Origin: Thermoplasmata archaeon
Lineage (GTDB): Archaea; Thermoplasmatota; Thermoplasmata; Lutacidiplasmatales; UBA184
Length of the DNA: 64,000 nt
Reading direction: 5' to 3'
Assembly: GCA_022750455.1 (NCBI GenBank)
Contig: JAKIVR010000001.1
Coordinates: 26,270-90,269, forward strand
Shown: positions 32,536-59,900 of the stretch, in pieces
Layout: every line of letters starts with the position of its first letter
Position numbering within the stretch: the first letter of the stretch is position 1
Program-made: the position numbers and the translations under genes
The notes under the pieces: model-generated
Seen by the model: the letters and a program-made list of their open reading frames with translations, nothing else
The model's database searches: none
Told to the model about the DNA's origin: nothing

Positions 32536-33303
32536 ATGGGCGCCATCCTCCTCGGCACCAGCGGCTGGGATTACCCGGAATGGGTCGGCCCGGTCTATCC
32601 GGCCCACCGGAACATCGATCGGCTGCGCCACTACGCCGACCTGTTCCCGATCGTGGAGGTGAACTCCACCTTCTACCATCTGCCGACAGTCTCGGTCGTG
32701 GGCTCGTGGGTCCGCCGGACGCCCTCGGGGTTCCGATTCGCCGTCAAGTTCCCGCAGACGATCACGCATGAGCGCCGGCTCGTCGGGGCCGACGGGGAGC
32801 TCCGCGAGTTCCTCCGTGTCGTCCGGCCCTTGACCGAGGCCGGACGGCTCGTGGGCGCCCTCCTCCAGCTGCCGCCGTCCCTCGCGTTCGATGCCGCGAT
32901 CGTGCGCTCGTTCTACGAATCGATCCCGGCCGAGCTGCCCGTGGCCGTGGAGTTTCGGCAGGCGTCCTGGACCTCTCCGGAGTCGCTCGAACTTCTGAAG
33001 GAGTTCCGTCTGGCGTACAGCGTGGTCGATGAACCGCTCCTCCCGATCTCGCTGCACGTCACCGGTTCGTTCAGCTACGTCCGGTGGCATGGCCACGGAA
33101 CCCCCCTCTGGTACGACTACACCTACTCGCCGGCCGAGCTCGCCCGTTGGATCCCCCGGATCCGGCAACTCGCCGAGGACGGGCGACCCGTGTATGGCTT
33201 CTTCAACAATCACTTCCGGGGGGACGCCGCCGTCAACTGCCGGCAGTTCACCGAACTCCTCGAGCTTCCCCGGCCGTCCTGGATGTCACCCCGTCTCGAC
33301 TGA
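32536..33303 (+). CDS. DUF72 (YecE-like) family protein
   Basis: N-terminal MGAILLGTSGWDYPEWVGPVYP is the DUF72 GTSGW-x-Y signature. The start is an ATG at M59 of the track ORF. Confidence 0.75.
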   Translation: MGAILLGTSGWDYPEWVGPVYPAHRNIDRLRHYADLFPIVEVNSTFYHLPTVSVVGSWVRRTPSGFRFAVKFPQTITHERRLVGADGELREFLRVVRPLTEAGRLVGALLQLPPSLAFDAAIVRSFYESIPAELPVAVEFRQASWTSPESLELLKEFRLAYSVVDEPLLPISLHVTGSFSYVRWHGHGTPLWYDYTYSPAELARWIPRIRQLAEDGRPVYGFFNNHFRGDAAVNCRQFTELLELPRPSWMSPRLD

Positions 33304-33359
33304 ACGGACCCTCGAGAGCCGCCCGGCACCCCCATATTCTCCGACCCGCTAGCGGTACT

Positions 33360-34832: not shown

Positions 34833-34833
34833 C

Positions 34834-37348: not shown

Positions 37349-37942
37349 GTGACCGATCCTCCCTCCCGCCGTGGGCTCCCCCCGACGGCCGGCGATCGGT
37401 GGCGACGCGGGGCGTTCGATCGACCGACGGTGCGGGTCGCGCGCGAGCTGCTCGGCGCTTGGCTCGTCGTCCGCCAGGGCCAGCGCAGGCTCTCGGCCCG
37501 GATCGTGGAGACGGAGGCGTACGTCGCGCGGGACGCGGCGAGCCACACGTTCCGAGGACCGACCCGTCGCAACCGGTCCATGTTCGGGCCGCCGGGAACG
37601 CTGTACGTGTACCGCATCCATCAGGTCGTCTGCGCGAACGTGGTCACCCAGCCCGGTCAGGCCGTGTTGCTCCGCGCCGCGGAACCCGGCCCGGGTCTCC
37701 GGGGGGATACCCGAGGCCCTGGACGGCTGTGCCGCACCCTCGGGATCACGCTCCTCGATGACGGCTCCGATGTGGTCCACGGACGGGTCGAGGTGAGGAG
37801 CGGAGCCCGCCGGACCGAGCGGATCGTGGTCGGGCCCCGGGTAGGGATCTCCCGTGGGGCGCGTCGGAGACTTCGCTACGCTCTCGACGGGAACCGGTGG
37901 GTCTCGTTGCCTCGACCGAGGCGGGTGCGCCCTACCGCTTGA
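37349..37942 (+). CDS. mpg: DNA-3-methyladenine glycosylase (Mpg/AAG family)
   Basis: [18 protein letters not shown]...[41 protein letters not shown]...LLRAAEP matches the Mpg family. GTG start. Confidence 0.8.
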
Positions 37943-38096
37943 GCTTCGCCCAGCTGTACGAGCGCCGCCGGGCCGTGTCACCGAACCCGCACGAGGAGCA
38001 GACCTCGTGTTGGCGGTGGAACGAATGGCTGCCACACCGGCGGCAGCGGATGTGCACGATCTTCCCGCCGCGGCGGGATGGAGTACCCTTTCCCAT
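37932..38096 (-). CDS. rpl37e: 50S ribosomal protein L37e
   Basis: [54 protein letters not shown] is 54 aa with CxxC...CxxC. It is under 60 aa and so absent from the track. A GGGAG lies 8 nt upstream of the ATG. Confidence 0.85.
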
Positions 38097-38114
38097 GAGC
38101 TTCTCCCGCGAAAC

Positions 38115-41075: not shown

Positions 41076-42413
41076 ATGGCGCAGCGATCCAGGACGAGCT
41101 TGGAGCTCCCTCTCGCGACCGCGCGGCGGTTCGTCCTCGATGCGCAACGGTTCCCGAAGCGCGCGCCTCCGCGGCGTCCGACCAAGGGGGAGATCCTGCG
41201 CTTGGTCGAACATCTCGGGTACGTCCAGCTGGATCCCACCAGCATCGTCGCCCGGAGCCACCTTCTCGTCCTCTGGAGCCGCCTCGGGCCGTACGATCCC
41301 CGGTGGGTGGACGAGCTGCTGGAGAAGGACAAGCAGCTGTTCGAATACTGGGCCCACGAGGCGTCGATCGTCCCGACCTCGGACCTGCCGTACCACCGGT
41401 TCCTGATGCGGAGATATCCGTGGGAACGGGGCCCGTATGGCGTTCGGATCCGCCGGTGGATGAAGCGGAACGCGCCGCTCCGCCGGGAGGTGCTCGCCCG
41501 ATTGCGCTCGGACGGCGCCCTGCCCCTCCACGCGTTCGCCGGCCGATCCCCGTCGGGATGGACGTCGAGGGAGAGGGACACCGGACGGAACGTGCAGCAG
41601 ATGCTGTTCGTCCTCTGGCTCCAAGGTCGGGTCGCCGTGCCTCGCCGGGAGTCGGGCCGGCGGTGGTGGGACCTCGCCGAACGTCACTATCCACCGGAGC
41701 CGAAGGGAGGCGCCCTGAGCCACCGGGCGGGGGCCTTGGGGACCGTGGACCGGGCGTTGCAAGCCCTGGGCGTGGCGACGGAGCGTCAGATCGCGCACTA
41801 CTCGATGTCGAATCGATTTCCCCACGTGGGCCGGGTGATCGAGCGCCTCACGTCGGAGGGCGCCCTGACCCCGACGACCCTGACCGGCGGACGCCGGCCG
41901 GTGAAGGGGCGCTGGTTCGTCCGGACGAAGGATCTCCCCCGCCTCACGTCCGGCGAGTTCGATCGACCGTGGCGGCGCGCCACCCTGCTCTCCCCGTTCG
42001 ACAGCTTGATCACGAACCGGGAGCGCACCGAGACGCTCTTCGGGCTGCGGTACCGGATCGAGATCTACACGCCGGCGGCGAAGCGGGTGCACGGGTACTA
42101 CGCGATGCCCGTGCTCGTCGGCGACCGTCTGGTCGGGACCGTGGAACCGGTCTTCGATCGGCGTCGGAACGTTCTGCAGGTCCCTCAGGGACACGAGAGC
42201 TCCGAGGAGGCGGGGGAGCGCAGTTCGGGAGCGGGCGTCGATCGGGCCGTGCGGGGCCTCGCCGACTTCCTCGGGGCGGATCGGGTGGAGTACGGACGCC
42301 GGTTCCCGGCGGCCTGGCGGGGCCATCTCGTCAGCGGACCGCTCGGGCGCCGCCCGGCGCGCGCCTCGCCCGTCGTCACTCCACGTCGTCGGGGAGGTCT
42401 TGCTCCAGGATGA
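41076..42413 (+). CDS. AlkZ/YcaQ-like winged-helix DNA glycosylase (DUF1006, HTH_42)
   Basis: The block TLLSPFDSLITNRERTETLFGLRYRIEIYTPAAKRVHGYYAMPVLVGDRLVGTVEP matches the YcaQ/AlkZ C-terminal catalytic region. Start set at MAQRSRTSLELPL. Confidence 0.55.
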   Translation: MAQRSRTSLELPLATARRFVLDAQRFPKRAPPRRPTKGEILRLVEHLGYVQLDPTSIVARSHLLVLWSRLGPYDPRWVDELLEKDKQLFEYWAHEASIVPTSDLPYHRFLMRRYPWERGPYGVRIRRWMKRNAPLRREVLARLRSDGALPLHAFAGRSPSGWTSRERDTGRNVQQMLFVLWLQGRVAVPRRESGRRWWDLAERHYPPEPKGGALSHRAGALGTVDRALQALGVATERQIAHYSMSNRFPHVGRVIERLTSEGALTPTTLTGGRRPVKGRWFVRTKDLPRLTSGEFDRPWRRATLLSPFDSLITNRERTETLFGLRYRIEIYTPAAKRVHGYYAMPVLVGDRLVGTVEPVFDRRRNVLQVPQGHESSEEAGERSSGAGVDRAVRGLADFLGADRVEYGRRFPAAWRGHLVSGPLGRRPARASPVVTPRRRGGLAPG

Positions 42414-42546
42414 GCGCCCCCGAGTAGCCGCACGCCTCGCAGACGTAGCGCGGTCCGAGGATCCCCCCGAGGATCGGGGAGATCTGCGTCGACTGGCAGC
42501 TCGGGCAGATCTTGATCGTCTTATGTTTCGCCCGGCGGTGAACCAT
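42376..42546 (-). pseudogene. Small 4-Cys zinc-ribbon gene interrupted by a 1-nt frameshift in a G-run (possibly a sequencing error)
   Basis: The ATG-initiated frame reads [22 protein letters not shown] and then degenerates. The -1 frame continues SPILGGILGPRYVCEACGYSGALILEQDLPDDVE to a stop. Removing one G from cggggagg (about 42474-42480) gives a clean 56-aa CPSC...CEAC protein. It overlaps the 3' end of gyrA. Confidence 0.5.
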
Positions 42547-45085
42547 CGTCGTCCCCCTTCGGCTCGGGCTCGTCGTCCGTCGGTGCCTCCGCCTCGGGCT
42601 CCGTGGGGGCGGCCGGCGTCGCCAGGGCGGCCTCCGCCGGTGGGTCGAGCGCCGCGACGTCCTTCACCGCATCGTTCGGCTCCAACCGGATGATCCGAAC
42701 GCCCATGGTGTTCCGGCCCTGGGAGCGGATCCCATCGACCGGGACGCGGATCGTGATGCCGTCCTGGGTCGTCACGAGCGCCTCTTGGTCCGGGGTGACC
42801 GGCAGCACCGCCACCACGTCGCCGTTCCGCCCGCCGGTCCGGATCGTCCGGACGCCCCGGGCCCCGCGCCGGGTCCGGCGGTAGTCCGCGAACTTGCTCC
42901 GCTTGCCAAAGCCCGTGGTGGTGAGGGTCAACAGGTCGGGCAGCTCGGCGGTCGCCGGGGCCATCGTCACGACCCGGTCCGTCGCGGGGTCCTTCAGGCG
43001 GACGCCGATGACCCCGTATGTCGCGCGCCCGGTCGGACGCACTTCGCTGAGCGGGAACCGGACCAACAGGCCGGAGGCGGTGGCGAGGATGACCTCCACG
43101 TCGTCCTGCGGCAGCAGGGCGACGTTCACGAGCTCGTCCTTCTCCTCGAGGAGGATCGCCTGGATCCCGTTCGTCCGGATGTTCTGGAACTGGTCGAGGG
43201 TCGTTCGCTTGACGAACCCCTGGCGGGTCGCGAAGAGGAGGCTGCCGCCGGTCGCGAGGTCCCGGATCGGAAGCAACGTCTGGACCTTCTCGTTCTCGAG
43301 CAGCTTCGGGAGGAGGTTGACGACCGCCTTGCCCTTCGAGTGGCGGCTTCCCTCGGGGAGCTCGTACGCCTTCAGCCGGTAGACGCGGCCGAGCGTGGTG
43401 AAGAAGAGGATGTTGTCGTGCGTCCGGGTGACGAACGTGCCGGTCACGAAGTCCTCCTCCTTCGTCTCCATCTGGATGAGCCCCTTGCCGCCCCGCCGCT
43501 GGCGGCGGTACTGGTCGAGCGGGAGGCGCTTGACGTAGCCGGAGTTCGTGACGAGCACGACGACGTCGGTGTCGGGGATCAGGTCCTCGAGCGTCCTCTC
43601 GGTGAATCCCGGGACGACCTTCGTCCGCCGGGGGTCGTTGAACTTCTGCTTGATCTCCTGCAGCTCGACGACGATCAGCGCATCGAGCTCCTTCGGGGAG
43701 GCGAGGATCGCCGTGAGGCGCTTGATCAGCTCCTCCTTCTCCTTCGCCTCCTTCTCGATCGACTCGCGTTCGAGGCCGGTGAGGCGCGAAAGTCGCATGT
43801 CCAGGATCGCCTTCGCCTGCTCCGTCGAGAGCAGGAACTTGCCCATCAGCGCCGTCTCGGCCGTGGCGACGTCCTTGGACTTACGGATGATCCGGACGAC
43901 CTCATCGATGTGGTCGAGGGCGACGAGGAACCCTTCGAGGAGGTGCTTGCGCTCCTGGGCCCGGGCGAGATCGAACTTGGTCCGTCGCGTGATGACCGTC
44001 CGGCGCTCCGTGAGGTGGAGCTGGAGGAGCTCGGCGAACGGTAGCACCTTCGGGCGGCCGTCGACGAGGCAGAGGTTGATGACGCCGAACGCCGCCTCGA
44101 GCGGGGTGTGCTCGTACAGCCGGTTGAGGACGATCTCCGCGGGCGCGTCCCGCCGCAGCTCGAGAACGATGGAGATGCCGTGCCGGTCGGACTCGTCCCG
44201 AAGGTCGGTGATGCCGTCGATCCGCTTCGCCTTGACGAGCTCCGCGATGAGCTGGAGCAGGCTCGACTTGTTGACCTCGTACGGGATCTCGGTGATGACG
44301 ATCTCGTCGCGCCCGTCCCGCTCCCGCGTCTCCGCCTTCCCGCGGATGCGCAGCATGCCGCGGCCGGTCGCGTAGACCTCGTGGAGGCTGGTGTCGGCGG
44401 CGACCAGCCCTCCGGTCGGGAAATCCGGTCCGGGGACGAGCTGGAGCAGCTCCTCGACGGTCGCCTCGGGCTTCCGGAGGACGAGGAGGAGCGCGTCGAC
44501 GATCTCCCCGAGGTTGTGGGGCGGCATGTTCGTCGCCATGCCGACGGCAATTCCGGCCGAACCGTTCACGAGCAGGTTCGGGAGCTTCGTCGGGAGCGTC
44601 AGCGGCTCCTTCAGCGTCCCATCGAAATTGTCGGTCCAGTCGACGGTCTCCTTCTCGATGTCCGTGAGCATGTCGTCGGCGATGGCGGCGAGGCGCGCCT
44701 CGGTGTACCGCATGGCGGCCGGCGGGTCGCCATCGATGGAGCCGAAGTTCCCCTGCCCGTCGATGAGCGGATAGCGCATGGAGAACAGCTGGCCCATCCG
44801 GACCAGCGCGTCGTACACCGACTGGTCGCCGTGCGGGTGGTACTTGCCGAGCACCTCTCCGACGGCGCGGGCGGACTTGCGGTACGGCTTGTCGTGGGTG
44901 ACCCCGCTCTCCCACATCGCCCAGAGGATGCGCCGGTGGACCGGCTTCAGGCCGTCCCGGCCGTCGGGGAGCGCCCGTCCGATGATGACGCTCATGGCGT
45001 ACTCGAGGTACGAGGTGTGGATCTCGCGCTCCAGCGGCTGCTCCCGGAGGCGGGAGTCCTTCACGAGCTCGACCTCGGGGCTCAT
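42521..45085 (-). CDS. gyrA: DNA gyrase subunit A
   Basis: [57 protein letters not shown]..., the active-site Tyr region, and C-terminal beta-pinwheel repeats; 853 aa. The track ORF carries a spurious 321-aa Arg/Gly-rich N-terminal extension. No gyrB is adjacent. Confidence 0.9.
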
Positions 45086-46464
45086 GGGGCGGTCCCTCCG
45101 ATCTGGCCGGCGACGACCTTCTCGGCGGCCTCGAGGAAACTTTGCCGCGAGCCGGCCGGGATGGTCGCCCCAGCGGCGACGCGGTGACCGCCCCCCTCGC
45201 CCTTCACGGAACGCGCCGCCTCGCGGCACGCCACGGAGAGGTCGAGCCCCTGCTCCACGAGCCACGTCGTCGCCCGGGAGGAGACCTTCATCTGGGTCGA
45301 GGACTCCGCCGCGATCCCGAAGACCGGATGCCGAGGATTGAGCAGGTAGTTCGCCGCGAACCCGGCCTGCGCGCCGGCGAGCGTCGACTCGTGGCTCTCG
45401 AACCAGTAGATGGAACCGAGTCGCTGCGGGCCCTCCAGCTCGAGTCGTCGGAGCCCGCTCATCACCCCCGTCCGCCACTGAGCCTCGGCCGCCTTCGCCT
45501 GGTGGAGAGCCGTGGGGTCCCCGAGCGCCAGCGAGATCCCGAGACCCGGCTCCCCGATGCGTCCGACCGAGTTCTGCAGGTTCGAGAGGTCCTCGGCGTC
45601 GAACTTCGGGTGCTCGGTGGTCCACGCCTCCCGACGAACCATGTGCACGAACTCGGGTCTCGCCCCTTGTTCTTGTAGCCGTCGCTCCAGTTCGGCCGCC
45701 AGGCGCTCCGTCCCTTCTTTTGACAGCGCCTCCGGGGCGACGGCAGGGTCGATCTCGAGCGAACGAAGGAGCGCCGTACACGCCTCCAAGTTGCCCGAGA
45801 GCCCCCGGAAGTACGGGTCCACGCTCCGCTCGATCGCGTCGGCGATGGTCGGGCCCCGGACGGCGAGGGCGGCCCGGGGGTGCAGGAGACCACGCTCGGT
45901 CGCCTCCTTCACGAGTCGGCCGCTCAGCCCTTGGAACCCTCCGACGTTCTGGCGGTCGGCGATCCCCCCGGAGAGACCCCACGGCGCGTTGTCCCAATTC
46001 TTCGGATCGAGGAAGATCGTGAACAGCCACGTGAGCGTGGCGCCGCACAGCTCGCTCATCCCGTCGACCCCCCAGTTCAACGGGTTCACGTATGCGACGT
46101 GCGCCGGCAGCTCGCCGGGGAACGGAGGGGCCTTGTGGTGGTCGAGTACGATGACGGGGTGAGCGTGCTTCGCGAACGCATCGAGCCAGCTCGCCCCCGT
46201 ATCGATGACCCAGACGGGGCCGGGGGTCGCGTGGAGGAGCTCCTCGATCTTGCCGCGCTCCACGCCGAGGAGCGGCGTCGCCTGCGCCGGATAGCCGAGA
46301 CGTCCCAGGGCGCGCACCGCGGACGACGCGCCCGCGATCCCATCCCCGTCGTAATGGTAGATGATGCGCCAGCGACCGGGGTGGGTGAGAAGGAGCTCTC
46401 GCGCCCGGTCGAACTCCCGGGCGTACTGTGGGTGGCTGACGAAACTCTCGGGCCCCGAGGGCAT
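45082..46464 (-). CDS. Archaeal RecJ-like DHH/DHHA1 phosphoesterase (RecJ/Cdc45/GAN-like)
   Basis: [22 protein letters not shown] and GGGHRVAAG (DHHA1) are present. Start at MPSGPESF (M134 of the track ORF) overlaps the rps15 stop as TGATG. Confidence 0.75.
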
Positions 46465-46919
46465 CACTCCACCTGGAGTACCGCCCGGGTGGCCGAATAG
46501 CTCCACGTCTCGGGGAGCACCTTGTGTTGCCGGTAATAGATTGCGAGGCGACGGATGCGCGACTCCATCAGGTTCAGTCCCCGGCGGTTCGCGAGATCCT
46601 TCGGATTCTGGCTGAGATGGCGCTGGAGCTTGACGACGCGCTTTAGGAGCGCCTCGATGTCCTCGGGGATGTCGCCCTTGATCCCGTTGTCGTGGAGAAG
46701 GGTGCCCAGGCGCTTGCCCGTGACGAGGCGGACGGAGGGGATCGCATACCCATCCCGCAGCTGCGCCCCGACCTGGGCGCTGGAGAGGCCGCTCTTGGCG
46801 AGCCGGACCGCCTGCTCCGTCGCCTCGTCCGCATCGACGGTGACCCACTCGGGGCGGGTCCACGGATACGGGCGCTGGGAGCCGGCACGGCCCCGGCGAC
46901 GGGAGTGGATGCGAGACAC
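46464..46919 (-). CDS. rps15: 30S ribosomal protein S15 (uS15, archaeal S15P/S13e)
   Basis: [20 protein letters not shown]...[37 protein letters not shown] is a typical archaeal S15 with a GTG start. Confidence 0.85.
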
Positions 46920-46942
46920 AAAGATTCGACGACCGTTGCGTA

Positions 46943-46952
46943 CTTAACGGTT
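46943..46952 (-). promoter_or_regulatory. AACCGTTAAG TATA-like element 24 nt upstream of the rps15 GTG
   Basis: The minus strand reads GAACCGTTAAGTACGCAACGG, sharing the 10-mer with the Sm-L37e upstream region. Confidence 0.4.
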
Positions 46953-47324
46953 CGCGCGCAAGGAGTTCTGACCACGTAGCAGGGCCGGCCGCGCCGCCTC
47001 TCCGGATCGGGCCGGGGACGGAACTCCGACGGAGGGAACGCCCTCCCCGCCGCTCCCGCCCAACCTACGTCTTTAAGCAACATGGCTATACCGCCGCAGG
47101 GAGGCCGTCGAGGTCCGGTGCGCCACGGAGAGTCCGACCTTCGGAACCCCAGCGTGGAAATTTCGGGAGACCGCCCGTTCCTGCGGACGATCCGGTCGCG
47201 CGCTCTGCGACGTTCCCGCTTCGCCTCGGCCCTCCGGCGTTCGGGTGCCCCGGTCCCCGTTCGATATCGTTCCGATCCGTGCGGTCCCCCGGCGATCTCG
47301 TCGACCCTCGTATGGGGGCGGATC

Positions 47325-50300
47325 CATGCACCGAGGGGATCGCGTCACGGTACGACCTGGCTGGGGGCGATCGTACTCACGCTCCTGCTGATCCTCTCCG
47401 GCCTCGCGTTCCTCGAGACAGCACCTCGCGGGGGGAGCGAGGCGAGCCCACCGGCTCCGTTCGTCCCCGCCCGCTCGATGGTGGCGACCCCCCCGAGCTC
47501 CCCCTCCGTAGCACCCATCGTCGAGCGTGCCGGCCCGACGTTTCCCTCCGCCATCGCGTGCGCGTTGGCGCCCGTTCCCGGTTGCCCGGCGCTGACCGAT
47601 CGCGCCCCCCTCGTGCCCCACCCCCTCGCCTCCGGCCCCTCGTCGTGGCTGAATCTCACACCGAACCCGTACCCCGTCTCCTACCCTTCGGCCCGGCTCG
47701 GCGCCGAAATGACGTACGATCCGGGCGACTCCCGCACGCTCCTGTTCGGCGGGCTCGGGAACGACTACGAGTTCGCGAACGACCTCTGGTCGTTCTCGGC
47801 GGGGAACTGGACGAACCTCACCGCCGCCTCCCCATGCTCCGCCACGAGCTGCCCCTCCCCCCGGGCGTACGCCGGCTTCGCCTACGACCTTCGCAACAAG
47901 GAGGCGGTCGTGTTCGGCGGCCTCGGGATCGTCGCGGGCCATCTCGCCGCGCTGGGGGACACCTGGGTCGACGCCCGCGGGGCGTGGACGAACGTCACCG
48001 CCACCGCCGGCACGCCCCCGTCGCCCCGGTTCGACGCCAGCATGAGCTACACGAGCGCTGAGGGCTACGTGGTGCTCTTCGGAGGCTCGACGATCAACAG
48101 CACGTTCCTCTCCGACACCTGGACGTTCGAGAACGGCCGGTGGTCGAACATCACGGCGAACGAGACCGACGAACCGGGAGCTCGGGCCGGCGCCGCCTTC
48201 GGTGATTCCCCGACCGGCTACGCGCTGCTGTTCGGAGGGTACGGTCCGGTCGGCTTGATCCAGCCTTCGACCGGGACGTGTGGGGAGTTCGCGCAGTACT
48301 GGTTCTCGGGCGGACAGTGGACCCATGCATCGATCTCTTGCGTGGAGTCCCCCCGCGGCCTGACCAGCGCGAACACCACCGGGGAACCGTGCGGCCGGGA
48401 AGGGGCGGCGCTGGCGTGGAGCCCGAAGAACCAGCATTTCGTCCTGTTCGGAGGGGACGGGATCGCGGGATCGGGATGCAACCCGACCGGCACCCTCGTG
48501 GCGCTGAACGATACCTACCTCTACCTCGGATCCCCCGGAGGCGCCTACGACCTCTGGCAGTCCGACATCTCGCCGGGCTGGCCCGCCGACCGGGAGGAGA
48601 TGGCGTACGCGCCCGATTACGCGGACGGCTACGTGGTCATCTTCGGGGGCACGATCGGGGGCGGCGGCCTCACCAACGAGACGTGGCGGTACTATGCCGC
48701 GGTCTCCGCTCTCTTCACCGGTCCGTTGGTGATCGAGAACAGTGCGACCAATCTCGGCTTCCCGATCTTCACCCTCACCGCGTTCGGAGGTTCCGGCAAC
48801 CTGGACTTCATCTTCAATACCACCGGGCTCCAGACCGGGAACCCACTGACGGGTTCGGCCGGCTGTTCCTTGTTCACCGACCAGGCCGGTCATCCGGCCC
48901 CAACGCAAGGCGTCGACGTGATTCGGTGCGCCCCGGCCCCCGGCGCCTACAACATCTACCGGCTCAGCGTCACCGTCTGGGACACGGAGCAGACGACGGC
49001 CCGGGCGTACGCGAACTGGACGTTCACGGCCGACCCGCCGGAGGCGCTCGACCTGTACTCCCAGTTCGCGGGGGCGTTCTACAACGGGATCTCGTTCACC
49101 GACCGATTCTCGGTCTACGCCCAGATCAACAACCAGCCGGTCACCCAGATCACGGGGTCGATTGGTCTCGGCCCCAACCTCAGCTTCTCCCACACCAGCT
49201 CGTCGGACTTCTGGTGGAACGCCTCGTACAACATGGACGAGGCCCCGGCCGGTGCCACCCTGTACGTCGTCGTCGAGAGCGACAACTGGCAGGAGAATGC
49301 GAGCCTGGCGCTCAACGTCGTCAACACCCCGTCGTTCATCACGAACTTCGTCAACGATCCGGGCGTCGTCCAGCAGGAGAAGTCGGTCGGATCCGGGCCG
49401 TTCAACGAGAACTACAGCCTCACGCAGTCGATCGCGATCTCGCTCTCCGCGTTCAGCGTCACGGTCCCGAAGAGCGTCCCGCTCCTCAGTGGCCTCTTCT
49501 CCCTGCTCCCGTCGATGACGGTGACGTTCTACGAGTCGAGCGCCGGGACCGTGATGATCTCGGGCGTCCTCGGGGAATCGCTGCCGGCGATCGACCTCGT
49601 CGGCGGCAGTCTCACGATCTCGGCGTCGCTGAACCTAAGCGGGACGCTCTCCATCACCAACTCGAACGGCGTCGAGAGCATCGACTGGGTCACCGCCAGC
49701 CTGACCGTCCAGATCAAGGGGGACTTCCAGGCGAGCATTCCGATCTACGGGTACACGTTCGACCTCTTCGGCGTGCCAGTCACCATCGGCTTCAGCCTGA
49801 CGATCGACGTCGCGCCGACCATCGCGCTGCAGATGGTGATGGCCCCGGCGAACTCCTCCGCGACGGCGATCGCCGACGGGTTCAACTTCACGATCGTCCA
49901 ACTCCTCGGGGATTTCTCGCTTCCCATCACGGCCGCCATCAACTTCGGGGTCGGGGTCGCCTCGGTCGCCGTCGGCGGCACGTTGACGTTCGACGTGGCG
50001 TTCGGGATCGCGCCCGGCCCGTTCGGTCCGACCGGATTATGGATCAACGGCACGTTGTTCGCCATGGTCCAGGTGCTCTTCTGGAGCGCCACCTGGAACT
50101 TCCTCGGACCGGCCGTCATCTACCACTCGTCGCCGGGGCAAGGGGAGGCGCCACGGTCGGAGGGGGCGCAACCGGCCACCTACGACAACGGCTCGGACGC
50201 GAGCTGGCAGCTCGATCCCCGGAGCTACAACGGGACCGGCTACGACCGCCTCCTCTGGTCCTCCCTGAACTCCTCGGGGGTCGCGATCTCCGACATCTAT

Positions 50301-51584
50301 CCGCACACGTCCTTCGCAGCCGCGAGCGCGTACGGGGGCGCCACTCTGTTCTACTCCAATGACCAGGTCGACCAACCCGTCCGCTCGGGGCTGGCGATCT
50401 CCGGTCTCCAGATCAACGCGAGCAACAACGTCGCCACGGCCCTCCCGTCCCCGGTCGATCCGGGGTTCATCGTCACGGCCCCCCACAGTTCGGCGATGCC
50501 CGACGGAAGCGACTACGTCCTCTGGAGCGCACTTCCCACCTCCCAGGCCGGCGGCCCCTCTCCGGTGGGGATCACCACCCTCGCGCTCCACGGGGCGCGG
50601 TACGACCCGCGAAATGAGAGCTGGGGGCCGGTCCACCAGTTCACCGCCTCCGAGATCGTCCAATCGTCCGGGATCGACACCTCGGGTCCCTCCCCGACGG
50701 TGGTCGCGCTCGTCGCCCCCGGCCTCAGCCCGACGCCGTCGAGCCCGGAGTGGCTGCTCAGCTTCAACGTCACCACCGGCGCCGAGATCTCCAACGCCTC
50801 GGTCCACGGGTACGCGACAATCGTCTCCGTACGCGGGGCCTCCGGTAGCATCCCCGGACGCGCGGTGTTGCAGCTCGTCGCCGGCAACGACTCCCTCCTG
50901 AACCTCGCCGAAGGCTCCGTGCAGGGCGTCGGGTACACGCCGCCCGACAACTCGACCTTGGTCGAGGAGCAGAACGTCGAGGGCAGCGCGACGGCCCTCC
51001 TGCTCCGGTATCGGCAGACCCAGTTGGAGATCGCCGTCCTGTACGATCCGGCCACGAGCCGGACGGTGGCGGTCCTGCCGCTTTCGGGAAGCGTCACGGA
51101 TGCGGAGGCGCTCGCGTCCGGGGGCAGCTTCTACGTGTACGTCGCCAACGGGACCGGGTTCTCGGGCTGGGAGGTCGGCCCCACGGGCGCCGTGACCCCG
51201 CTCCTTCCGGTCGACGTCTCGGGCCTCAACGGATTCGGGATGACGCAGGTCGGGAGCTCCCTGTTGCTCTATGCGCTCGTGCCCGAGGCCGGGGGCGCCC
51301 CGGGGAGCCGCTCGTTGTTCCTCACCGAGGTCGGGGTCGGTCTGCCGGCGCTGACCGCCGGAGCGCCCGCCTCGAGCACGGGGACGAGCCTGCCGCCGGC
51401 CGCGTCCTCTCCGTCACCGTTCAACTGGGCGCTGTGGCTCGGCGTGCCGATCGTCGCCGCCGTGGTCGCGCTCACGACGATCGTCATCCTTCGGAGGCGT
51501 CCACCGACCGCGCCCGCGGCCGCACCACCGTCCGGAGCGACCGCGCCGGAAGCGCCGTTGGGACCGCCTCCGGGTCCGGGGTGA
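47325..51584 (+). CDS. Large secreted Kelch-repeat (galactose-oxidase-like beta-propeller) protein with a C-terminal TM anchor; an apparent 1-nt frameshift separates its signal peptide from its body
   Basis: The body has repeated LLFGG/VLFGG/VVFGG Kelch blocks and a Ser/Ala/Pro-rich stalk. It ends with a hydrophobic anchor (WALWLGVPIVAAVVALTTIVILRRRP) and a Pro/Ala tail. The ATG at 47325 (another frame) encodes MHRGDRVTVRPGWG and then hits a stop. Deleting one G from GGGGG (47363-47367) yields the signal peptide MHRGDRVTVRPGWGAIVLTLLLILSGLAFLETAP. The track start at 47082 is probably spurious read-through. Confidence 0.6.
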   Translation, partial: HAPRGSRHGTTWLGAIVLTLLLILSGLAFLETAPRGGSEASPPAPFVPARSMVATPPSSPSVAPIVERAGPTFPSAIACALAPVPGCPALTDRAPLVPHPLASGPSSWLNLTPNPYPVSYPSARLGAEMTYDPGDSRTLLFGGLGNDYEFANDLWSFSAGNWTNLTAASPCSATSCPSPRAYAGFAYDLRNKEAVVFGGLGIVAGHLAALGDTWVDARGAWTNVTATAGTPPSPRFDASMSYTSAEGYVVLFGGSTINSTFLSDTWTFENGRWSNITANETDEPGARAGAAFGDSPTGYALLFGGYGPVGLIQPSTGTCGEFAQYWFSGGQWTHASISCVESPRGLTSANTTGEPCGREGAALAWSPKNQHFVLFGGDGIAGSGCNPTGTLVALNDTYLYLGSPGGAYDLWQSDISPGWPADREEMAYAPDYADGYVVIFGGTIGGGGLTNETWRYYAAVSALFTGPLVIENSATNLGFPIFTLTAFGGSGNLDFIFNTTGLQTGNPLTGSAGCSLFTDQAGHPAPTQGVDVIRCAPAPGAYNIYRLSVTVWDTEQTTARAYANWTFTADPPEALDLYSQFAGAFYNGISFTDRFSVYAQINNQPVTQITGSIGLGPNLSFSHTSSSDFWWNASYNMDEAPAGATLYVVVESDNWQENASLALNVVNTPSFITNFVNDPGVVQQEKSVGSGPFNENYSLTQSIAISLSAFSVTVPKSVPLLSGLFSLLPSMTVTFYESSAGTVMISGVLGESLPAIDLVGGSLTISASLNLSGTLSITNSNGVESIDWVTASLTVQIKGDFQASIPIYGYTFDLFGVPVTIGFSLTIDVAPTIALQMVMAPANSSATAIADGFNFTIVQLLGDFSLPITAAINFGVGVASVAVGGTLTFDVAFGIAPGPFGPTGLWINGTLFAMVQVLFWSATWNFLGPAVIYHSSPGQGEAPRSEGAQPATYDNGSDASWQLDPRSYNGTGYDRLLWSSLNSSGVAISDIYPHTSFAAASAYGGATLFYSNDQVDQPVRSGLAISGLQINASNNVATALPSPVDPGFIVTAPHSSAMPDGSDYVLWSALPTSQAGGPSPVGITTLALHGARYDPRNESWGPVHQFTASEIVQSSGIDTSGPSPTVVALVAPGLSPTPSSPEWLLSFNVTTGAEISNASVHGYATIVSVRGASGSIPGRAVLQLVAGNDSLLNLAEGSVQGVGYTPPDNSTLVEEQNVEGSATALLLRYRQTQLEIAVLYDPATSRTVAVLPLSGSVTDAEALASGGSFYVYVANGTGFSGWEVGPTGAVTPLLPVDVSGLNGFGMTQVGSSLLLYALVPEAGGAPGSRSLFLTEVGVGLPALTAGAPASSTGTSLPPAASSPSPFNWALWLGVPIVAAVVALTTIVILRRRPPTAPAAAPPSGATAPEAPLGPPPGPG

Positions 51585-51588
51585 GACG

Positions 51589-53652
51589 ATGATCTCTCAC
51601 TGGTCCGGACATCTGCTCGTGGCCGTTGCGACCCTCGCCCTCTTGGTCGGGTCGGGCGTGCCGCTCCCGGGCGCACCGAACGCGACGTTCACAGCTCCTC
51701 TCCACGCCGCGGCACCGACGCAACTCGGGATTCCCCCACCGCCGCCACCGCCGCCGCCCGCTCCGGCGATCGTGCAGACCGAGGGTCTCGCCTGGATCGA
51801 TCTGACGCACTCCGGACCCGGCCACGCCCCGCCCGCCTCCGCGGGGTCGTCGCTCGCCTACGACGCCGCGGATGCCGAGTGGGTCGAGTTCGGGGGGTGC
51901 GGAGTTCCGCGGTGCCCCCTCAACGACACGTGGGTGTTCCGGGACGGCGGTTGGCAGAACGTCACGCGCGGGGGACCGTCCCCGCCGGCGCGCGCAGGGG
52001 CCTCCATGGATTACGACGCGAACGCGCAGGGCATCCTGCTGTTCGGGGGACTCGGGACCTCCGGCGCCCTGAACGACACGTGGCTGTTCCGCGACGGACT
52101 ATGGACGAACGAGACGTACCTCGGAAACGCGCCCTCGTCGCGCGAAGAGGCGGATCTCGTCTTCGACCCGGAACCCGAGACCAACGGTTCGCTCCTCTTC
52201 GGAGGATGCCAGGCCCAATTGTACCCCTTCCCCTGCTTCAACGACACGTGGGTCTGGAATCCCGGAGCCGGTTGGGTGGAGCTCTCCGCGGGGGCAGCGC
52301 CTCCGGCCCGCGGCGGCGGCATGATGGCCTATGATGCCGCGGACGGCTACGTCGTTCTCTTTGGCGGCTGGTACGGGTGCGGCTTGTCGATCTGCAACGA
52401 CAACGACACCTGGGAGTACTACTCCGGCCAGTGGTGGCCGGTCGACCCGGCCGGCCCGGTCCCGAGCGCGCGCGATTCGGGAGCGATGACGTTCGACGCC
52501 GCCTTGGGTGGCGTGCTGTTGTTCGGCGGCCTGAACGAATCGACGCTGACGGACACGAACGACAGCTGGGAGTTCTCGCAGGGAGGCTGGAGCGAGCTCT
52601 CGACGTCCCAATCCCCCCCGGGCCGGGATTCGGTCGGGCTGTCGGTCGACTCGTCCGACGTCCCGCCTCTGCTCTTCGGGGGGAATGAGTACCCCGCCGG
52701 GACCCCCCTCAACGATACCTGGGTGTTCGAACCGGCTCTCGGGGCCGGGATCTCCGGCGCCCCGGCCCACGCCGTGGAAGCCGGCTCGACCATCCTCCTT
52801 GAGGTCGCCGTGGTGGGCGGGAGCGCTCCGTACGCCGTCACGATCGACTTCGGCGACGGACACGACTCGGCGGCGGCGGGCCCCGGGCCGATGTTCGAGT
52901 TCCCTGCTACCTACGACAGCGTGCAGAACTGCACGGTCCGGGTGAACGTCACCGATTCGGTCGGCGTCAACATCTCCGCCACGGCGCCGGTGACGGTGAT
53001 GCGGGGCCCGAGCGTCCAGATCTCGACAGCCACCGTCTCGGGCGACGTCGGCGTCCCCGCCCATTTCACTGGCACCCCGGGAAACGGCTCGCCTTTGCTG
53101 TTGAACTACTCCTGGTCGTTCGGCGACGGAACCCCTCCCGAGACGGGCCCGATCGTGTCGCATATCTTCTCTCTCGCGGGCCCGTACGCCGTCGAGCTCG
53201 GCGCGAACGATGCGGCCGGAACTCCGGCTTCGACCGAGCTCCTCTTCGTCGTCGCGCCCAACCCCACGGTGACGATCAGTGCCACCCCGACGGGACCGGT
53301 CGTCGGGGTTCCGCTCTCGTTCATCGCGAACGTTTCGGGCGGAACGGCTCCGTTCCAGTATACGTGGTCGTTCGGCGACGGCGCCTCGGCGGGCTCCCCC
53401 GGGCCTTCCCACGTCTACGCCACTTCCGGCACCTTCCAAGTGCAGTTGTGGGTGAACGACTCCGCCGGCGGCTCGGCCCACTCCGTTTCGACCCTCTCTG
53501 TGGCGGGCAGCTCCTCGTCGGGCCCGGGACCCTCGCCCGGTTCGGGATCGACCCCGATTCCGTCGGACTATTGGATCGCCCTCGGAGCCGTGGTCGGCCT
53601 CACCCTCGTGGCGGCGGCGGTCCTCCTCTGGAAGCGTCCTCCCCGGCCCTAG
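51589..53652 (+). CDS. Secreted Kelch-repeat protein with PKD domains and a C-terminal TM anchor
   Basis: Signal peptide MISHWSGHLLVAVATLALLVGSGVPLPGAP, followed by a PPPPPPPPAPA linker. It has Kelch blocks (LLFGG, VLFGG, LLFGG) and PKD signatures (YSWSFGDGTP, YTWSFGDGAS), and ends YWIALGAVVGLTLVAAAVLLWKRPPRP. Confidence 0.75.
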   Translation: MISHWSGHLLVAVATLALLVGSGVPLPGAPNATFTAPLHAAAPTQLGIPPPPPPPPPAPAIVQTEGLAWIDLTHSGPGHAPPASAGSSLAYDAADAEWVEFGGCGVPRCPLNDTWVFRDGGWQNVTRGGPSPPARAGASMDYDANAQGILLFGGLGTSGALNDTWLFRDGLWTNETYLGNAPSSREEADLVFDPEPETNGSLLFGGCQAQLYPFPCFNDTWVWNPGAGWVELSAGAAPPARGGGMMAYDAADGYVVLFGGWYGCGLSICNDNDTWEYYSGQWWPVDPAGPVPSARDSGAMTFDAALGGVLLFGGLNESTLTDTNDSWEFSQGGWSELSTSQSPPGRDSVGLSVDSSDVPPLLFGGNEYPAGTPLNDTWVFEPALGAGISGAPAHAVEAGSTILLEVAVVGGSAPYAVTIDFGDGHDSAAAGPGPMFEFPATYDSVQNCTVRVNVTDSVGVNISATAPVTVMRGPSVQISTATVSGDVGVPAHFTGTPGNGSPLLLNYSWSFGDGTPPETGPIVSHIFSLAGPYAVELGANDAAGTPASTELLFVVAPNPTVTISATPTGPVVGVPLSFIANVSGGTAPFQYTWSFGDGASAGSPGPSHVYATSGTFQVQLWVNDSAGGSAHSVSTLSVAGSSSSGPGPSPGSGSTPIPSDYWIALGAVVGLTLVAAAVLLWKRPPRP

Positions 53653-54143: not shown

Positions 54144-54211
54144 TCTACGGCAACGAGCGTCGAAGGCGTATATGTGCACCATGCCCGAGCGGGGCGGAAC
54201 CGGCAAAGGGG

Positions 54212-54547
54212 ATGTACCCCCTCTTCCGATACCTGAGCATGGCGTGCACGTGCCGGCTGCCGGCCCGATGCAGCGTGTGCAACACGCCCATCCGGGTCCC
54301 GCTCTCGAACCTGGAGAGCTCGAGCGGAGCGGCGCTCATGCTCGACAAGTTCGCCCGCCGCGACTCGACGGCGAGCCGGGAGGGCCTTCATCGTCTCATC
54401 GAGGGGAACACCCGTTGTCCGCACTGCGGCCACACGGTGACGCACTTGCACTCGCGCAGCTGCGTCGCGGCGTACCTCGCCCAGATCGGGGTGCCCCCGA
54501 ACGAGGCCGCCCAGCTCCTGCAGCGCACCACGTTCCCTGAGGGGTAG
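54212..54547 (+). CDS. Cys-rich small protein (putative zinc finger) immediately upstream of trpS
   Basis: Seven Cys arranged as ACTCRLPARCSVC...CPHCGHTVTHLHSRSC. The TAG stop lies 6 nt before the trpS GTG. The start may instead be at M10. Confidence 0.4.
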   Translation: MYPLFRYLSMACTCRLPARCSVCNTPIRVPLSNLESSSGAALMLDKFARRDSTASREGLHRLIEGNTRCPHCGHTVTHLHSRSCVAAYLAQIGVPPNEAAQLLQRTTFPEG

Positions 54548-56983: not shown

Positions 56984-59900
56984 CTAGCTTCGGCGCCGCC
57001 GTCCGCGCGCGCCGGACTTCGGCCGGGATCCCATCGGCACCGGCGTCGGGGTCCGGGCGGGCTTCGGTCCGGTCTCTGGCGTCCCGTACAGCGCGTCGAC
57101 CGTCACGGGATGCTGCTCCAGCCAATGGAGCCCCTCGACGTACGCGTCGAACGACTCGAGGCTCGTGAACAGGGGAACGCCGAGCTCCACGGCCCGTCGC
57201 CGGATGGTGTACTCATCCTCGAGCATCCGCTCGAACTTCTCCTGCGTGAGCGAGAGCGGCACGTTCAGGATGAGGTCGATCCGGCCACTGTCGAGCGCCT
57301 CCTGGACGTTCGGGTGGCGGTCGGGCTCGGAGATCTTGTGGAGCACCTCGACCCCCCGGAAACCCCGGGCCACGAGGTACGCGGCCGTGTCCTCGGTGGC
57401 GGCGAGCTTGAAGTCGAGGGCGACGAGCCGCTCCGCGGTCGGCACGAGTGCCGCCTTCAGCTCCTGACCGCCCACGGAGAGCATCGCGCGTCCGCCGCGG
57501 GGGACGAGACGCACGCCCGTCGCCACGAGCGCCTTCACCAGCGCGTCCGCAAAGGTCGGGCCGAAGCAGGCGACCTCGCCGGTCGACTGCATCTCGACGC
57601 CGAGGAGCGGGTCCGATCCGGAGACCTGTAGGAACGAGAACTGGGGGACCTTGACGCCCCACCGGCCAGGCGGCAGCGGCGCGACCCCCTTGCGCCCGAG
57701 AGGACGGCCGAGCATCGCCCTCGCCGCCTCACGGAGCAGCGGGAGTCCGGTCGCCTTCGTGAGGAACGGGAGGGAGCGGCTCGCCCGCAGATTCAGCTCG
57801 ATGATCTGGTACGCGCCGTCCTTGACGAGGAACTGAATGTTGAATGGACCGCGGATCTGCAGCTCCTTCGCGAGGCGCTCGGCGACGGAGATCAAAGCGC
57901 GCTGGACCGTGAACGGTGTGTGGCGCGGCGGCAGGCAGAAGATCGCGTCGCCGGAGTGGATCCCGGCGCGTTCGACGTGCTCGAGGATGCCCGCGATGAG
58001 CACGCTCTTGCCGTCGGAGATCCCATCGAGCTCGACCTCGTCGGCGCCCTCGACGAACTTGGAGATCACGACCGGGTACTCGGGGGATAGGCGTGCGGCC
58101 TCGGTCAGGAACCGTACGAGGTCGGAGCGGCCCCAGATGACCCGCATCGCCTGGCCGCTCAGCACGTACGACGGCCGCACGAGGACCGGGTAGCCCACGG
58201 TGTCGGCGAACGCCTCCGCCTCCTGCTCGCTGGTGAACGCCTGCCACGCCGGTTGCGGGATGTGCAGCTTCTCTAGCAAACGGGCGAACAGGGACCGGTT
58301 CTCGGCCGTGTCGATGGAACTGGAGGCGGTCCCGAGGATCGGGATGCCGCAGGCCGAGAGGAGCGGTGTCAGATTCTGGGCGAGCTGGCTCCCCACGCAG
58401 GTGACGACGCCGCCGAACTTCTCGAAGTCCATGATGTCGCGGACGCGCTCGAGCGTGATCTCCTCGAAGTAGAGGCGGTCCGAGCGGTCGTAGTCCGTCG
58501 AGACCGTCTCGGGGTTCGAATTGAGGAGCGCGACGCGGGGCACCCCTTCGGCGCGCAGCCCGTCCACGAGGTTCATCGTCGACCAGTCGAACTCGACGCT
58601 CGAGCCGATCCGGTACGGTCCCGCTCCGAGGACGAGCACGCTTCCCACCGGCGACGGGGTCACGTCGTCGGCGTCGGCGCGGTAGGTGAAGTAGAGGTAG
58701 TTCGTCTTCGCGGGCCATTCGCCGGCGAGCGTATCGATCATCCGGATGCGGGGCCGGATGCCGAGCTCGAGACGGTGCTGCCGTACCATCTCCTCGTCCT
58801 GACGGAGCGCCCGGGCGATCGCCCGGTCCGACAGTCCGTTCTCCTTCGCCGTGCGGAGGAGCTGAGGGGAGGCGACCTTTCCGGTCGAGGCGCAACGCAT
58901 CAGCTCCCTCTCGACCCGCTCGATGTCCGCGAGCCCGTCCAGGAACCATCGGTCGATCCAGGTGCGCTTCGCGAGATCGTCGAGGGTCGCTCCCGCGCGG
59001 ATCGCCTCGAGCAGCTGGATCAGGATCTCCGGCCGCATCGGGAGGAGACCGTCCAGGACTTCCGGTAGGGGGCGCGCCTCCGGGGGGGGGATCAGGTCCG
59101 ACCGGGGGTCGACCATCCGTACGGCCTTGCTCAGCGCCTCGGGGAACGACGCGCCGATCCCCATCACTTCGCCGACGCTCTTCATCGACGGACCGAGGTC
59201 GGTGTTCGCCCGGGCGAACTTGGCGAGGTCCCAGCGGGGGAGCTTGACGACCACGTAATCCAACGCCGGCTCGAAGCAGGCGGTGGTGACCCCGGTGATC
59301 CGATTCTTCAGTTCGGGCAACGTGTACCCGAGGGCCAATTTCGCTGCGACGTACGCGAGGGGGTACCCCGTCGCCTTGCTCGCCAGCGCGCTCGATCGCG
59401 AGAGACGGGCGTTGATCTCGATCGCGTAGTAATCGTCCGTCTTCGGATCGAGCGCGAACTGGATGTTGCACTCCCCGACGATGCCGACGACCTCGGCGGC
59501 GCGCAGCGCGGCCTGGCGAAGCATCTGGTACTCGTGGTCGTCGAGGGTCTGCGAGGGAGCGATGACGACGTTGTCACCGGTATGCACCCGCATCCCGAGG
59601 ACGTTCTCCATGTTGCAGACGGTGATCGTCGTCCCGAGCCGGTCCCGAACGATCTCGTACTCGATCTGTTTGTACTCCCCGACGTACCGTTCGAGGAGCA
59701 CCTGGCCCACGGGGGAGAGCCGGAGGCCCCGGCTCACGACCTCCTCCAGATGCGCCGGGTCGCCGACGTACCCTCCGCCCTTCCCGCCGAGGGTGTAGGC
59801 GACGCGGACCATCACCGGATATCCGAGCTCGGCGACGGCGCTGCGCGCCTCCTCCAGGGAGTAGACGGCGCGCGCTTGGAGGACCGGGACCTTCGCCTTG

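Follow-up and report, generated by a model that had tools for sequence, protein, structure and literature searches.

The Kelch surface-protein gene and its relatives

The window, by which we mean the whole 64-kb stretch of DNA analysed here, contains on its forward strand an open frame of 1,500 codons (47082..51584) with Kelch domains and a hydrophobic stretch, TTWLGAIVLTLLLILSGLAFL. The Kelch profiles matched residues about 199-394 of this 1,500-aa frame above their curated cut-offs (PF24681, 75.7 bits against a cut-off of 50; PF24981, 50.2 against 50; PF13418, 40.4 against 21.6; PF13415, 33.5 against 22), and the protein carries 30 N-X-S/T sequons. It is a membrane-anchored and probably glycosylated surface protein. 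It is encoded in a two-gene cassette with a 687-aa partner, and the same pair is found at the homologous loci L001, L002, L007, L009 and L011-L013. At least 60 homologues among the Kelch surface proteins of the Thermoplasmata (Lutacidiplasmatales and relatives) share its domain content, a length of ~1,280-1,500 aa, an anchor with an LLLSG.P-like motif in the h-region, the C-terminal transmembrane segment and an adjoining gene of ~680 aa with Kelch and PKD domains. Unlike these homologues, the copy in the window has no in-frame canonical start near its signal anchor. The N-terminal anchor is itself missing from 30 of the 64 full-length homologue gene models, which indicates that caution is needed when the starts of secreted proteins are called in archaeal MAGs of high GC. 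The features of the locus are collected in Table 1.

Table 1. Features of the Kelch locus, in window coordinates.
Feature	Position	Strand	Basis
SD-like GGGGGCGGA, 4-12 nt 5' of ATG 47326	47314..47322	+	GGNGG motif test
Short ORF as sequenced: ATG, 20 further codons and TGA (MHRGDRVTVRPGWGRSYSRSC, then stop)	47326..47391	+	
First 13-14 codons of the short ORF, presumed to have been the n-region of the Kelch protein	from 47326	+	
G5 run; one G added here joins the ATG and Kelch frames (1,419 aa)	47363..47367	+	
G4 run, alternative repair site (MHRGGSRHGTTWLGAIVL...)	47335..47338	+	hand translation, hydropathy, charge
Hydrophobic h-region AIVLTLLLILSGLAFL (signal anchor), Kelch frame	47367..47414	+	
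Rest of the Kelch surface-protein gene, intact, GC3 0.91	47364..51584	+	
Kelch beta-propeller	about 47676-48263	+	
C-terminal transmembrane segment, then RRR	51426-51491	+	
GTG, start in GenBank model L3K03_00360 (1,476 aa)	47154..47156	+	
Partner gene 3' of the Kelch gene: 687 aa, Kelch and PKD, own signal peptide, SD GGTGA	51589..53652	+	

Frame geometry and coding signal ahead of the signal anchor

In the Kelch frame, not one ATG, GTG or TTG occurs from 47157 to 47477; the nearest canonical codons on either side are the GenBank start, GTG 47154, and ATG 47478. The first-pass annotation had already remarked that the frame has no plausible start near the h-region, and it had correctly placed a GGGGG run at 47363-47367, which is preceded by T and followed by C. 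It had also seen an ATG in another frame just upstream; this ATG exists, at 47326-47328 rather than at 47325. The reading frame that it opens was said to stop after 14 codons at ...PGWG, but it reads 21 codons (MHRGDRVTVRPGWGRSYSRSC) before ending at the TGA at 47389-47391. The direction of the suggested repair has to be reversed, since the removal of one G yields no signal peptide but MHRGDRVTVRPGWGDRTHAPADPL..., and the peptide that had been quoted, MHRGDRVTVRPGWGAIVLTLLLILSGLAFLETAP, requires the addition of one G (G6). The frame of ATG 47326 is joined to the Kelch frame by one added G or by the removal of two, the latter giving ...PGWAIVL... at the run.

With one G added, the protein would begin with the n-region MHRGDRVTVRPGWG, of net charge +2, followed by the h-region AIVLTLLLILSGLAFL, with a mean Kyte-Doolittle hydropathy of 2.83 over 15 aa, then by ETAPRGGSEAS, and would be 1,419 aa long. 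This N-terminus has the short charged n-region and the h-region of 15-20 residues of a Sec-type signal peptide or signal anchor. The position of the presumed missing base is flexible, any site within 47329-47367 being suitable, and the G5 and G4 runs fit alike: one G added in the G4 run at 47335-47338 gives, when translated by hand, an equally good MHRGGSRHGTTWLGAIVL..., with the same n-region charge and h-region hydropathy.

The position at which coding begins is consistent with a start at this ATG. The coding signal, as judged from GC3, sets in near 47352, with the nearest in-frame canonical starts lying 66 codons before and 42 codons after this onset; ATG 47326 lies 9 codons upstream of it, out of frame. 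Among the six candidate starts tested, ATG 47326 alone has an SD-like GGNGG at -16..-4, a motif that either random positions or the full set of ATGs show at that distance with a frequency of 9-10%, and other genes of the window bear similar motifs at the same distance (GGTGA, GGGGGA, GGAGGG, GGAGGT). On the opposite side, an out-of-frame ATG within about 20 upstream codons is no rarity: from base composition, the chance of meeting one is estimated at roughly 0.1-0.2 when no SD motif is required.

The GenBank protein (P0001) begins MEISGDRPF..., a model that implies an arginine-rich tail of 68 codons. If no base were missing and this model were right, translation would start at GTG 47154, or else at GTG 47118 or ATG 47082, and an arginine-rich cytoplasmic tail of 68-92 aa would precede a type II signal anchor. 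This appears unlikely. The frame is indeed open from 46980, PGAP picked GTG 47154, a TATA-like TTTAAG lies upstream at 47071-47076, an arginine-rich tail fits the positive-inside rule and the n-regions called in homologues reach 71 aa. However, GC3 over the 69 codons that begin with GTG 47154 is 0.71, no higher than in the other two frames (0.65 and 0.71), and a value of 0.71 or less was found in none of 2,042 genuine windows of 69 codons each drawn from 20 confident genes (minimum 0.754, mean 0.913). These codons look non-coding. One observation weighs on the opposite side, against the loss of a base: the genuine N-terminus of the neighbouring gene has a GC3 of just 0.78 over its first 69 codons. 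No SD-like motif precedes 47154, 47118 or 47082, and the in-frame upstream region shows no protein similarity to that of L007 (z = -0.7). Richness in Arg, Pro, Ala and Gly is expected of any translated non-coding DNA at 69% GC, a stop-free stretch of 69-126 codons would arise by chance with an estimated probability of about 0.08-0.24 at this GC, and the long tails called in homologues are, we suppose, probably over-extended gene calls.

Orthologous starts and the nature of the break

The orthologues provide a view of what an unbroken start may look like. L003, the closest named orthologue (52% identical), has an intact ATG-initiated ORF of 1,416 aa that begins MTLRPGRAIGRFRIARGRNTAIAIVAILLLSSLAAIG, with a positively charged n-region of 18 codons ahead of the same signal anchor, and in L008, L009, L013, L001 and L002 the h-region is preceded, at a distance of 5-23 codons, by an in-frame start. 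The family is not uniform, as L007, L004/L005 and L006 also have no in-frame start close upstream that would provide a charged n-region, the sole nearby start in L004/L005/L006 being a TTG or GTG right where the h-region begins, and the called n-regions range from 0 to 71 aa. These sequences suggest that unusual starts may be tolerated in the Kelch family. In L007, the closest homologue, the aligned place reads GTC GGG GCG ATC (G4) and is in frame. DNA similarity to L007 starts exactly at GGGGCGATC, where the h-region starts; further upstream, the comparison of the nine frame pairs at the protein level returned only arginine-rich, low-complexity matches (z = -0.7 for the Kelch frame and 1.9 for the ATG frame, the best pair being off-frame and of low complexity). 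The n-region peptide has no significant homology because it is too short and too divergent. The 'MHR' N-termini of the homologues P0026 and P0053 were considered as support and set aside, since the M of P0026 is encoded by GTG and so small a sample carries no weight.

It could also be surmised from this diversity that no base is missing and that a near-cognate codon in the Kelch frame beside the h-region (CTG 47361, ACG 47352, ATC 47322 or ATC 47370) serves as the start, leaving the signal peptide almost or wholly devoid of a charged n-region. Such codons are present, CTG 47361 sits where L004/L005/L006 have TTG or GTG, and the gene at 34831-36156 likewise has only ACG codons where its homologues start. 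We nevertheless regard this proposition as quite improbable: inspection of the sequence revealed no SD-like motif before any of the four codons, about 13% of codons are estimated to be near-cognate in such a composition, so that nearby ones are to be expected, and the SD-preceded ATG 47326 would be left as a coincidence. We know of no demonstration that CTG or ACG initiates efficiently in archaea, and we count this against such a start.

Taken together, the onset of the coding signal, the SD-like motif, the apparently non-coding character of the in-frame extension and the starts of several orthologues agree with the core of the first-pass annotation, namely that a frame break of one base most likely separates the real start and n-region from the signal anchor. 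We propose that the gene, of ~1,419 aa, originally began at ATG 47326, behind the SD-like GGGGGCGGA, and that one base has gone between this ATG and the signal anchor. We infer both this ancestral start and the loss itself. In the simplest version, the loss would be a change from G6 to G5 at 47363-47367; it could equally be one from G5 to G4 at 47335-47338, or of any single base within 47329-47367. The loss of one base would leave the ATG and a charged n-region of 13-14 codons one frame off the other ~1,405 codons. As the remaining 4.2 kb are stop-free with a GC3 of 0.91, the lesion would be either recent or artefactual. An isolated loss of one base between 47329 and 47367, whether a real variant or a consensus error, is thus an explanation that we hold to be reasonably probable. 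If the consensus is in error, the gene would be intact; if the variant is real in the sampled population, a ribosome starting at ATG 47326 would meet a stop after 21 codons, so that the cells would have no protein, or only what a makeshift start provides.

The frame break is an ordinary annotation problem, not new biology. It has its counterpart in the frameshifted genes of draft genomes and MAGs with a single-base indel at the 5' end, where a good start with its ribosome-binding site likewise lies one base off an intact long ORF and automatic annotation compensates with a distant in-frame start; we see no essential difference. In the GenBank model, which starts at GTG 47154 and has 1,476 aa, the first 68 residues are probably a false tail that hides a normal signal peptide; once corrected, the gene would encode an anchored surface glycoprotein of the Kelch type, 1,419 aa long and resembling its orthologues. 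Were the base truly absent in the cells, the strain would have recently lost or crippled one surface protein, a minor observation at the strain level.

Searches for a second copy of the strain returned only more distant sequences: neither the GenBank protein nor the adjacent ribosomal protein S15 was found in an assembly index, two exact-pattern scans of JGI metagenomes, one on either side of the G run, gave no match, and a scan of a genome collection retrieved only relatives at 52% identity or less. Elsewhere in the family, the independent assemblies L009 and L010, which are 99.9% identical at an orthologous locus, differ by a single indel, a G6/G5 difference, and single-G events do therefore occur in such data.

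This G6/G5 difference between assemblies could also be taken, together with the fact that surface proteins are the usual targets of phase variation, as a sign that the break is functional, acting by phase-variable switching through changes in G-tract length, by the gain of a G in transcriptional slippage, or by tRNA-Gly slipping by -1 within the run. The product of such a -1 slip, taken on U GGG GGC, would be exactly MHRGDRVTVRPGWGAIVL..., and the two overlapping frames, joinable by such a slip, recall programmed -1 ribosomal frameshifting, of which the alpha-L-fucosidase gene of Sulfolobus solfataricus is reportedly an example. We find a functional break highly improbable. Unlike in programmed frameshifting, there is no canonical heptamer, stimulatory structure or conservation, and the upstream frame adds only 13-14 codons. 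The upstream-frame codons are GGC TGG GGG CGA, in which C TGG GGG does not fit the slippery pattern X XXY YYZ, and in the absence of such a heptamer only single-tRNA slippage on GGG is conceivable. For the region 47300-47440 the folding energy is -58.4 kcal/mol, no better than that of shuffled sequence (-60.8 +/- 4.4; z = +0.55), and an Rfam search around the break gave no match. The frame offset is not conserved, as shown by the in-frame starts ahead of the h-region in L003, L008, L009, L013, L001 and L002.

The resemblance to the poly-G and poly-C contingency loci of Neisseria, Haemophilus and Campylobacter, in which a G tract likewise lies in the 5' coding sequence of a surface-protein gene and a change in its length switches the frame, is also limited. 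In known contingency loci the tract is about 8 bases long or longer, compared with 5 G here, in a 69%-GC genome full of such runs. The 64 kb hold 243 G or C runs of at least 5, of which 188 have exactly 5 bases and 55 have more, a total below the 402 that shuffles predict, and a run of at least 5 is found in 19% of random 60-nt stretches and one of at least 4 in 53%. Because such runs are common in the window, the G5 at 47363-47367 is not remarkable. The earlier suggestion of phase-variable G-tracts consequently finds no footing in a tract so far short of the known ones, in a window depleted of such runs and with a break that is absent from the orthologues. In more general terms, it is very unlikely that the five-G state is both real and used, be it as on/off alleles in the soil population or through a full protein made by a -1 slip or near-cognate initiation. 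Were on/off alleles true, they would represent low-grade phase variation by single-G changes in an uncultured Thermoplasmata lineage; and if the five-G allele did make the full protein, the gene at 34831-36156 would be a hint that this lineage, with its 69% GC, is less strict about start codons.

Homopolymer runs and gene starts across the window

The first-pass annotation had extended the single case to the assembly as a whole, with systematic homopolymer errors as one suggested cause and many other gene starts as possible casualties. A G run is indeed one possible site of the break, and a second such case had been reported, in a zinc-ribbon gene. That errors in homopolymer length corrupt this gene start and many others is nonetheless extremely improbable: in 20 confident coding segments (34.6 kb), all 113 G or C runs of at least 5 keep the frame, including 26 of at least 6 and 8 of at least 7, from which a per-run error below about 2.6% at 95% was calculated. 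The runs within intact ORFs include G9 at 59082-59090, C8 at 4521-4528 and, in the Kelch gene itself, C7 at 47488-47494. A canonical in-frame start lies within 16 codons of the coding onset in 36 of 36 other genes. The sister MAGs (L3K locus tags, JAKIW accessions) derive from Illumina NovaSeq sequencing of PCR-free libraries and MEGAHIT assembly, not from a homopolymer-prone platform, and the data behind the window are probably Illumina as well, the L3K03 MAG being placed in the same project from its locus-tag prefix; the source metagenome probably belongs to BioProject PRJNA795910. Homopolymer errors are not widespread in the window, and its other ORFs are trustworthy.

A scan for frame switches at homopolymers, of the kind that had been recommended, returned ten candidates, all of which proved to be ordinary gene junctions, with their own start codons and SD motifs, or shadows of genes on the opposite strand, except for the HEAT/34831 junction. 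The possibility that the minus-strand ORFs 42548-45100, 45100-46467 and 46467-46886 form one frameshifted gene was rejected, as they have normal ATG or GTG starts, SD motifs and overlapping stops, and correspond to a GyrA-like gene, a DHH/DHHA1 protein and S15. The zinc-ribbon-like ORFs found at 12778-12948 and 42376-42546, L37e at 37932-38114 and the ORF at 54212-54547 all have a usable in-frame ATG. In place of the many affected start codons that had been foreseen, a single other gene, at 34831-36156, has no nearby canonical start, and no frameshift rescues it; it has only ACG codons where its homologues start. This gene counts against a lost base in the Kelch gene, as it is a hint of non-canonical starts, or of point errors, elsewhere in the window.

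Frame geometry and coding onset at the Kelch gene start

The large ORF, in a window of 69% GC, is 100% identical to GenBank L3K03_00360 (1,476 aa, 'Thermoplasmata archaeon' MAG). Its open frame of 1,500 codons contains both the Kelch domains, which score above the Pfam cut-offs, and the hydrophobic stretch ...TTWLGAIVLTLLLILSGLAFLETAP; the gene body extends over 4.2 kb without stops, with a third-codon-position GC (GC3) of 0.91. The protein carries 30 N-glycosylation sequons and a C-terminal TM followed by RRR. A two-gene cassette is kept in the window (47326-53652) and at the homologous loci L001, L002, L007, L009 and L011-L013, in which the gene for a 1,280-1,500-aa Kelch protein precedes, by no more than ~5 nt, that for a Kelch + PKD protein of ~675-687 aa. 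LLxSG.P-type signal anchors are present in both cassette proteins, as are C-terminal TM anchors in the window.

The absence of a start near the hydrophobic signal anchor (h-region), which the first-pass annotation had pointed out, is borne out by the Kelch frame, which is devoid of ATG, GTG and TTG over 47157-47477. The closest canonical starts of this frame lie at GTG 47154, the one used in the GenBank model (N-terminus MEISGDRPF...), and at ATG 47478, downstream of the membrane segment. Near-cognate initiation adjoining the h-region is an unlikely reading. The G run is as described, and the out-of-frame ATG exists, at 47326 rather than 47325; its frame, said to stop after WG, reads on as MHRGDRVTVRPGWGRSYSRSC. 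Explicit translation demonstrates that the suggested removal of one G gives MHRGDRVTVRPGWGDRTHAPADPL..., and that the quoted signal peptide is obtained solely by adding one G, with a product of 1,419 aa; removal of two G at GGGGG likewise restores the frame.

The third codon position is ~91% GC in this genome, which provides a sharp frame signal. ATG 47326 is located 9 codons upstream of the coding onset in the Kelch frame, in the wrong frame. A canonical in-frame start is found at most 16 codons from the onset in 36/36 other coding segments, the Kelch gene being an outlier with in-frame starts 66 codons upstream and 42 downstream. Among six candidate starts, ATG 47326 alone has a Shine-Dalgarno-like GGNGG at -16..-4 (background 9-10%), and similar motifs precede unambiguous starts elsewhere in the window. 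We propose that ATG 47326 is probably the original start of the Kelch gene, and that a single base between this ATG and the h-region would be missing from the consensus. The far-upstream GenBank start is unlikely to be correct: between GTG 47154 and the h-region (69 codons), GC3 is 0.71, at the level of the two alternative frames (0.65, 0.71) and below all 2,042 69-codon windows of 20 confident genes (minimum 0.754, mean 0.913), a comparison to be read with caution as the neighbouring Kelch-PKD gene has, at its genuine N-terminus, a GC3 of only 0.78. Repairs at G5 and at G4 both yield good predicted signal peptides (charge +2, hydropathy 2.83) and, these being equally good, the putative lost base cannot be assigned to one of them.

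Between the genes for ribosomal protein S15 and the Kelch protein, a divergent intergenic region of 460 nt contains two TATA-like AT-rich elements; of these, the second would put a transcript start ~35 nt before ATG 47326. The S15 gene (minus strand) starts at GTG 46919, with a TTAAGTA box centred ~25 nt upstream (region 46919-46960), suggesting that its mRNA may be leaderless or nearly so, unlike the SD-led internal operon genes.

Coordinates of start signals, homopolymer runs and related features in the window
Feature	Position	Strand	Remark
C8	4521-4528		in uninterrupted ORF
TATA-like TCTTTAAGCAAC	47068-47079
Kelch open frame	47082..51584	+
TATA-like TTCGATATCGTT	47260-47271
Shine-Dalgarno-like GGGGGCGGA	47314-47322	+	before ATG 47326
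G4	47335-47338		candidate repair site
Coding onset, Kelch frame	47352		maximal coding-signal segment
G5 (GGGGG)	47363-47367		candidate repair site
Stop of ATG 47326 frame	47389-47391
C7	47488-47494		within Kelch gene, ORF uninterrupted
G9	59082-59090		in uninterrupted ORF

Comparison with relatives

Relatives reach 54% identity at most, which rules out a base-by-base comparison of the site. The relatives from the genome collection are the MAGs AcS5-107, AcS5-34, SubAcS15-67 and SubAcS13-24 (JAKIW accessions, L3K locus tags) of the Lutacidiplasmatales study, in which PCR-free Illumina NovaSeq libraries were assembled with MEGAHIT and genomes were ~69% GC (PMC9287336); from the locus-tag prefix, we infer that the MAG of the window belongs to the same project. 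The best named ortholog, L003 (AcS5-107), is an intact ATG ORF of 1,416 aa with the N-terminus MTLRPGRAIGRFRIARGRNTAIAIVAILLLSSLAAIG. Starts lie 23 codons before the h-region in L008 (ATG, in frame), 5 in L009 (GTG), 8 in L013 (GTG), 19 in L001 (TTG) and 21 in L002 (GTG). L004, L005 and L006 have TTG or GTG at the first codon of the h-region, or else starts 35-90 codons upstream, and the closest homolog, L007, has its nearest start at least 32 codons away; L004-L007 show no convincing start near the h-region. The N-terminal membrane segment is missing from 30/64 full-length homolog gene models, and the n-regions (the stretches before the h-region) as called span 0-71 residues. In high-GC Thermoplasmata MAGs, start calling is unreliable in general for this family, whose starts are messy, and the comparison favours a short charged n-region without proving it. 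DNA similarity to L007 sets in precisely at GGGGCGATC, with which the h-region opens. Translations of the upstream region, compared with L007, scored z = -0.7 in the Kelch frame, which is not significant, and z = 1.9 in the ATG frame, and the top-scoring frame pair was an off-frame low-complexity match.

Homopolymer runs and the nature of the frame break

Systematic homopolymer errors, suspected in the first-pass annotation, find no echo in the 34.6 kb of confident coding segments, where 113 G/C runs of at least 5 (26 of at least 6, 8 of at least 7) contain 0 frame breaks, from which a per-run error below roughly 2.6% was calculated. With 113/113 runs keeping frame, an assembly that is error-ridden in general is highly improbable. 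The longest runs (G9, C8 and the C7 of the Kelch gene) are among those that leave their ORF uninterrupted. A scan for frame switches at homopolymers returned junctions between operon genes of the ordinary type, which bear start codons and SD motifs, or shadows of the opposite strand. The other supposed G-run frameshift, in a zinc-ribbon gene, is not recovered, as the zinc-ribbon-like ORFs located all start with an in-frame ATG. The ORF at 54170-54547, which may be the case intended, has ATG 54212 in frame and a TATA-like GTATATGTG ~40 nt upstream; the simplest reading of the sequence is a promoter followed by this ATG, making a frameshift unnecessary. An in-frame CAPC precedes this first in-frame ATG, and an out-of-frame ATG at 54172 falls within GTATATGTG (window 54160-54547).

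If tRNA-Gly slipped by -1 on U GGG GGC, the repaired protein would result, but functional recoding or phase variation is very improbable: the canonical slippery heptamer is absent at the frame break, the downstream RNA fold is no better than shuffles (z = +0.55), Rfam has no match around the break, orthologs are without the frame offset, and G/C runs of at least 5 are depleted rather than enriched in the window (243 observed vs 402 expected from composition). The tracts of known contingency loci are well longer than five G, whereas that of the Kelch gene has five, and the proposal of a phase-variable G-tract is not retained.

Since the rest of the Kelch gene is intact, the putative lost base would go back to an error in the consensus or to a variant of very recent origin. 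L009 (NCBI) and L010 (Logan), independent assemblies of the orthologous locus, are 99.9% identical over 7.5 kb, with seven substitutions and one indel, namely G6 vs G5 in an intergenic region upstream of their own Kelch gene (L009 nt 2319, L010 nt 40). This difference shows that single-G changes can occur in such data and are a non-exotic class of event, whether polymorphism or error. The frame break at the Kelch gene start is of an ordinary kind, and the first-pass annotation had caught a probable mis-annotated start, its wider claims failing.

A second start anomaly and window composition

The gene at 34831-36156 (+) overlaps the end of a HEAT-repeat gene (33084-34832). Its standalone homologs are 410-450 aa long and start 3-20 residues before the conserved LDVYLFPA, and the codons at the expected start are ACG ACG ACG AGA TCT. 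No frame over 34780-34920 (~140 nt) has an ATG, GTG or TTG, so no frameshift rescues this gene; the anomaly could reflect a lost start, near-cognate initiation or a point error. An ATG replacing an ACG would be synonymous in the overlapping HEAT frame (GAT for GAC). At 26000-32000, where large minus-strand genes lie, G+C dips to 0.64 vs ~0.69-0.70 elsewhere, and this segment may be acquired DNA or a mere compositional outlier.
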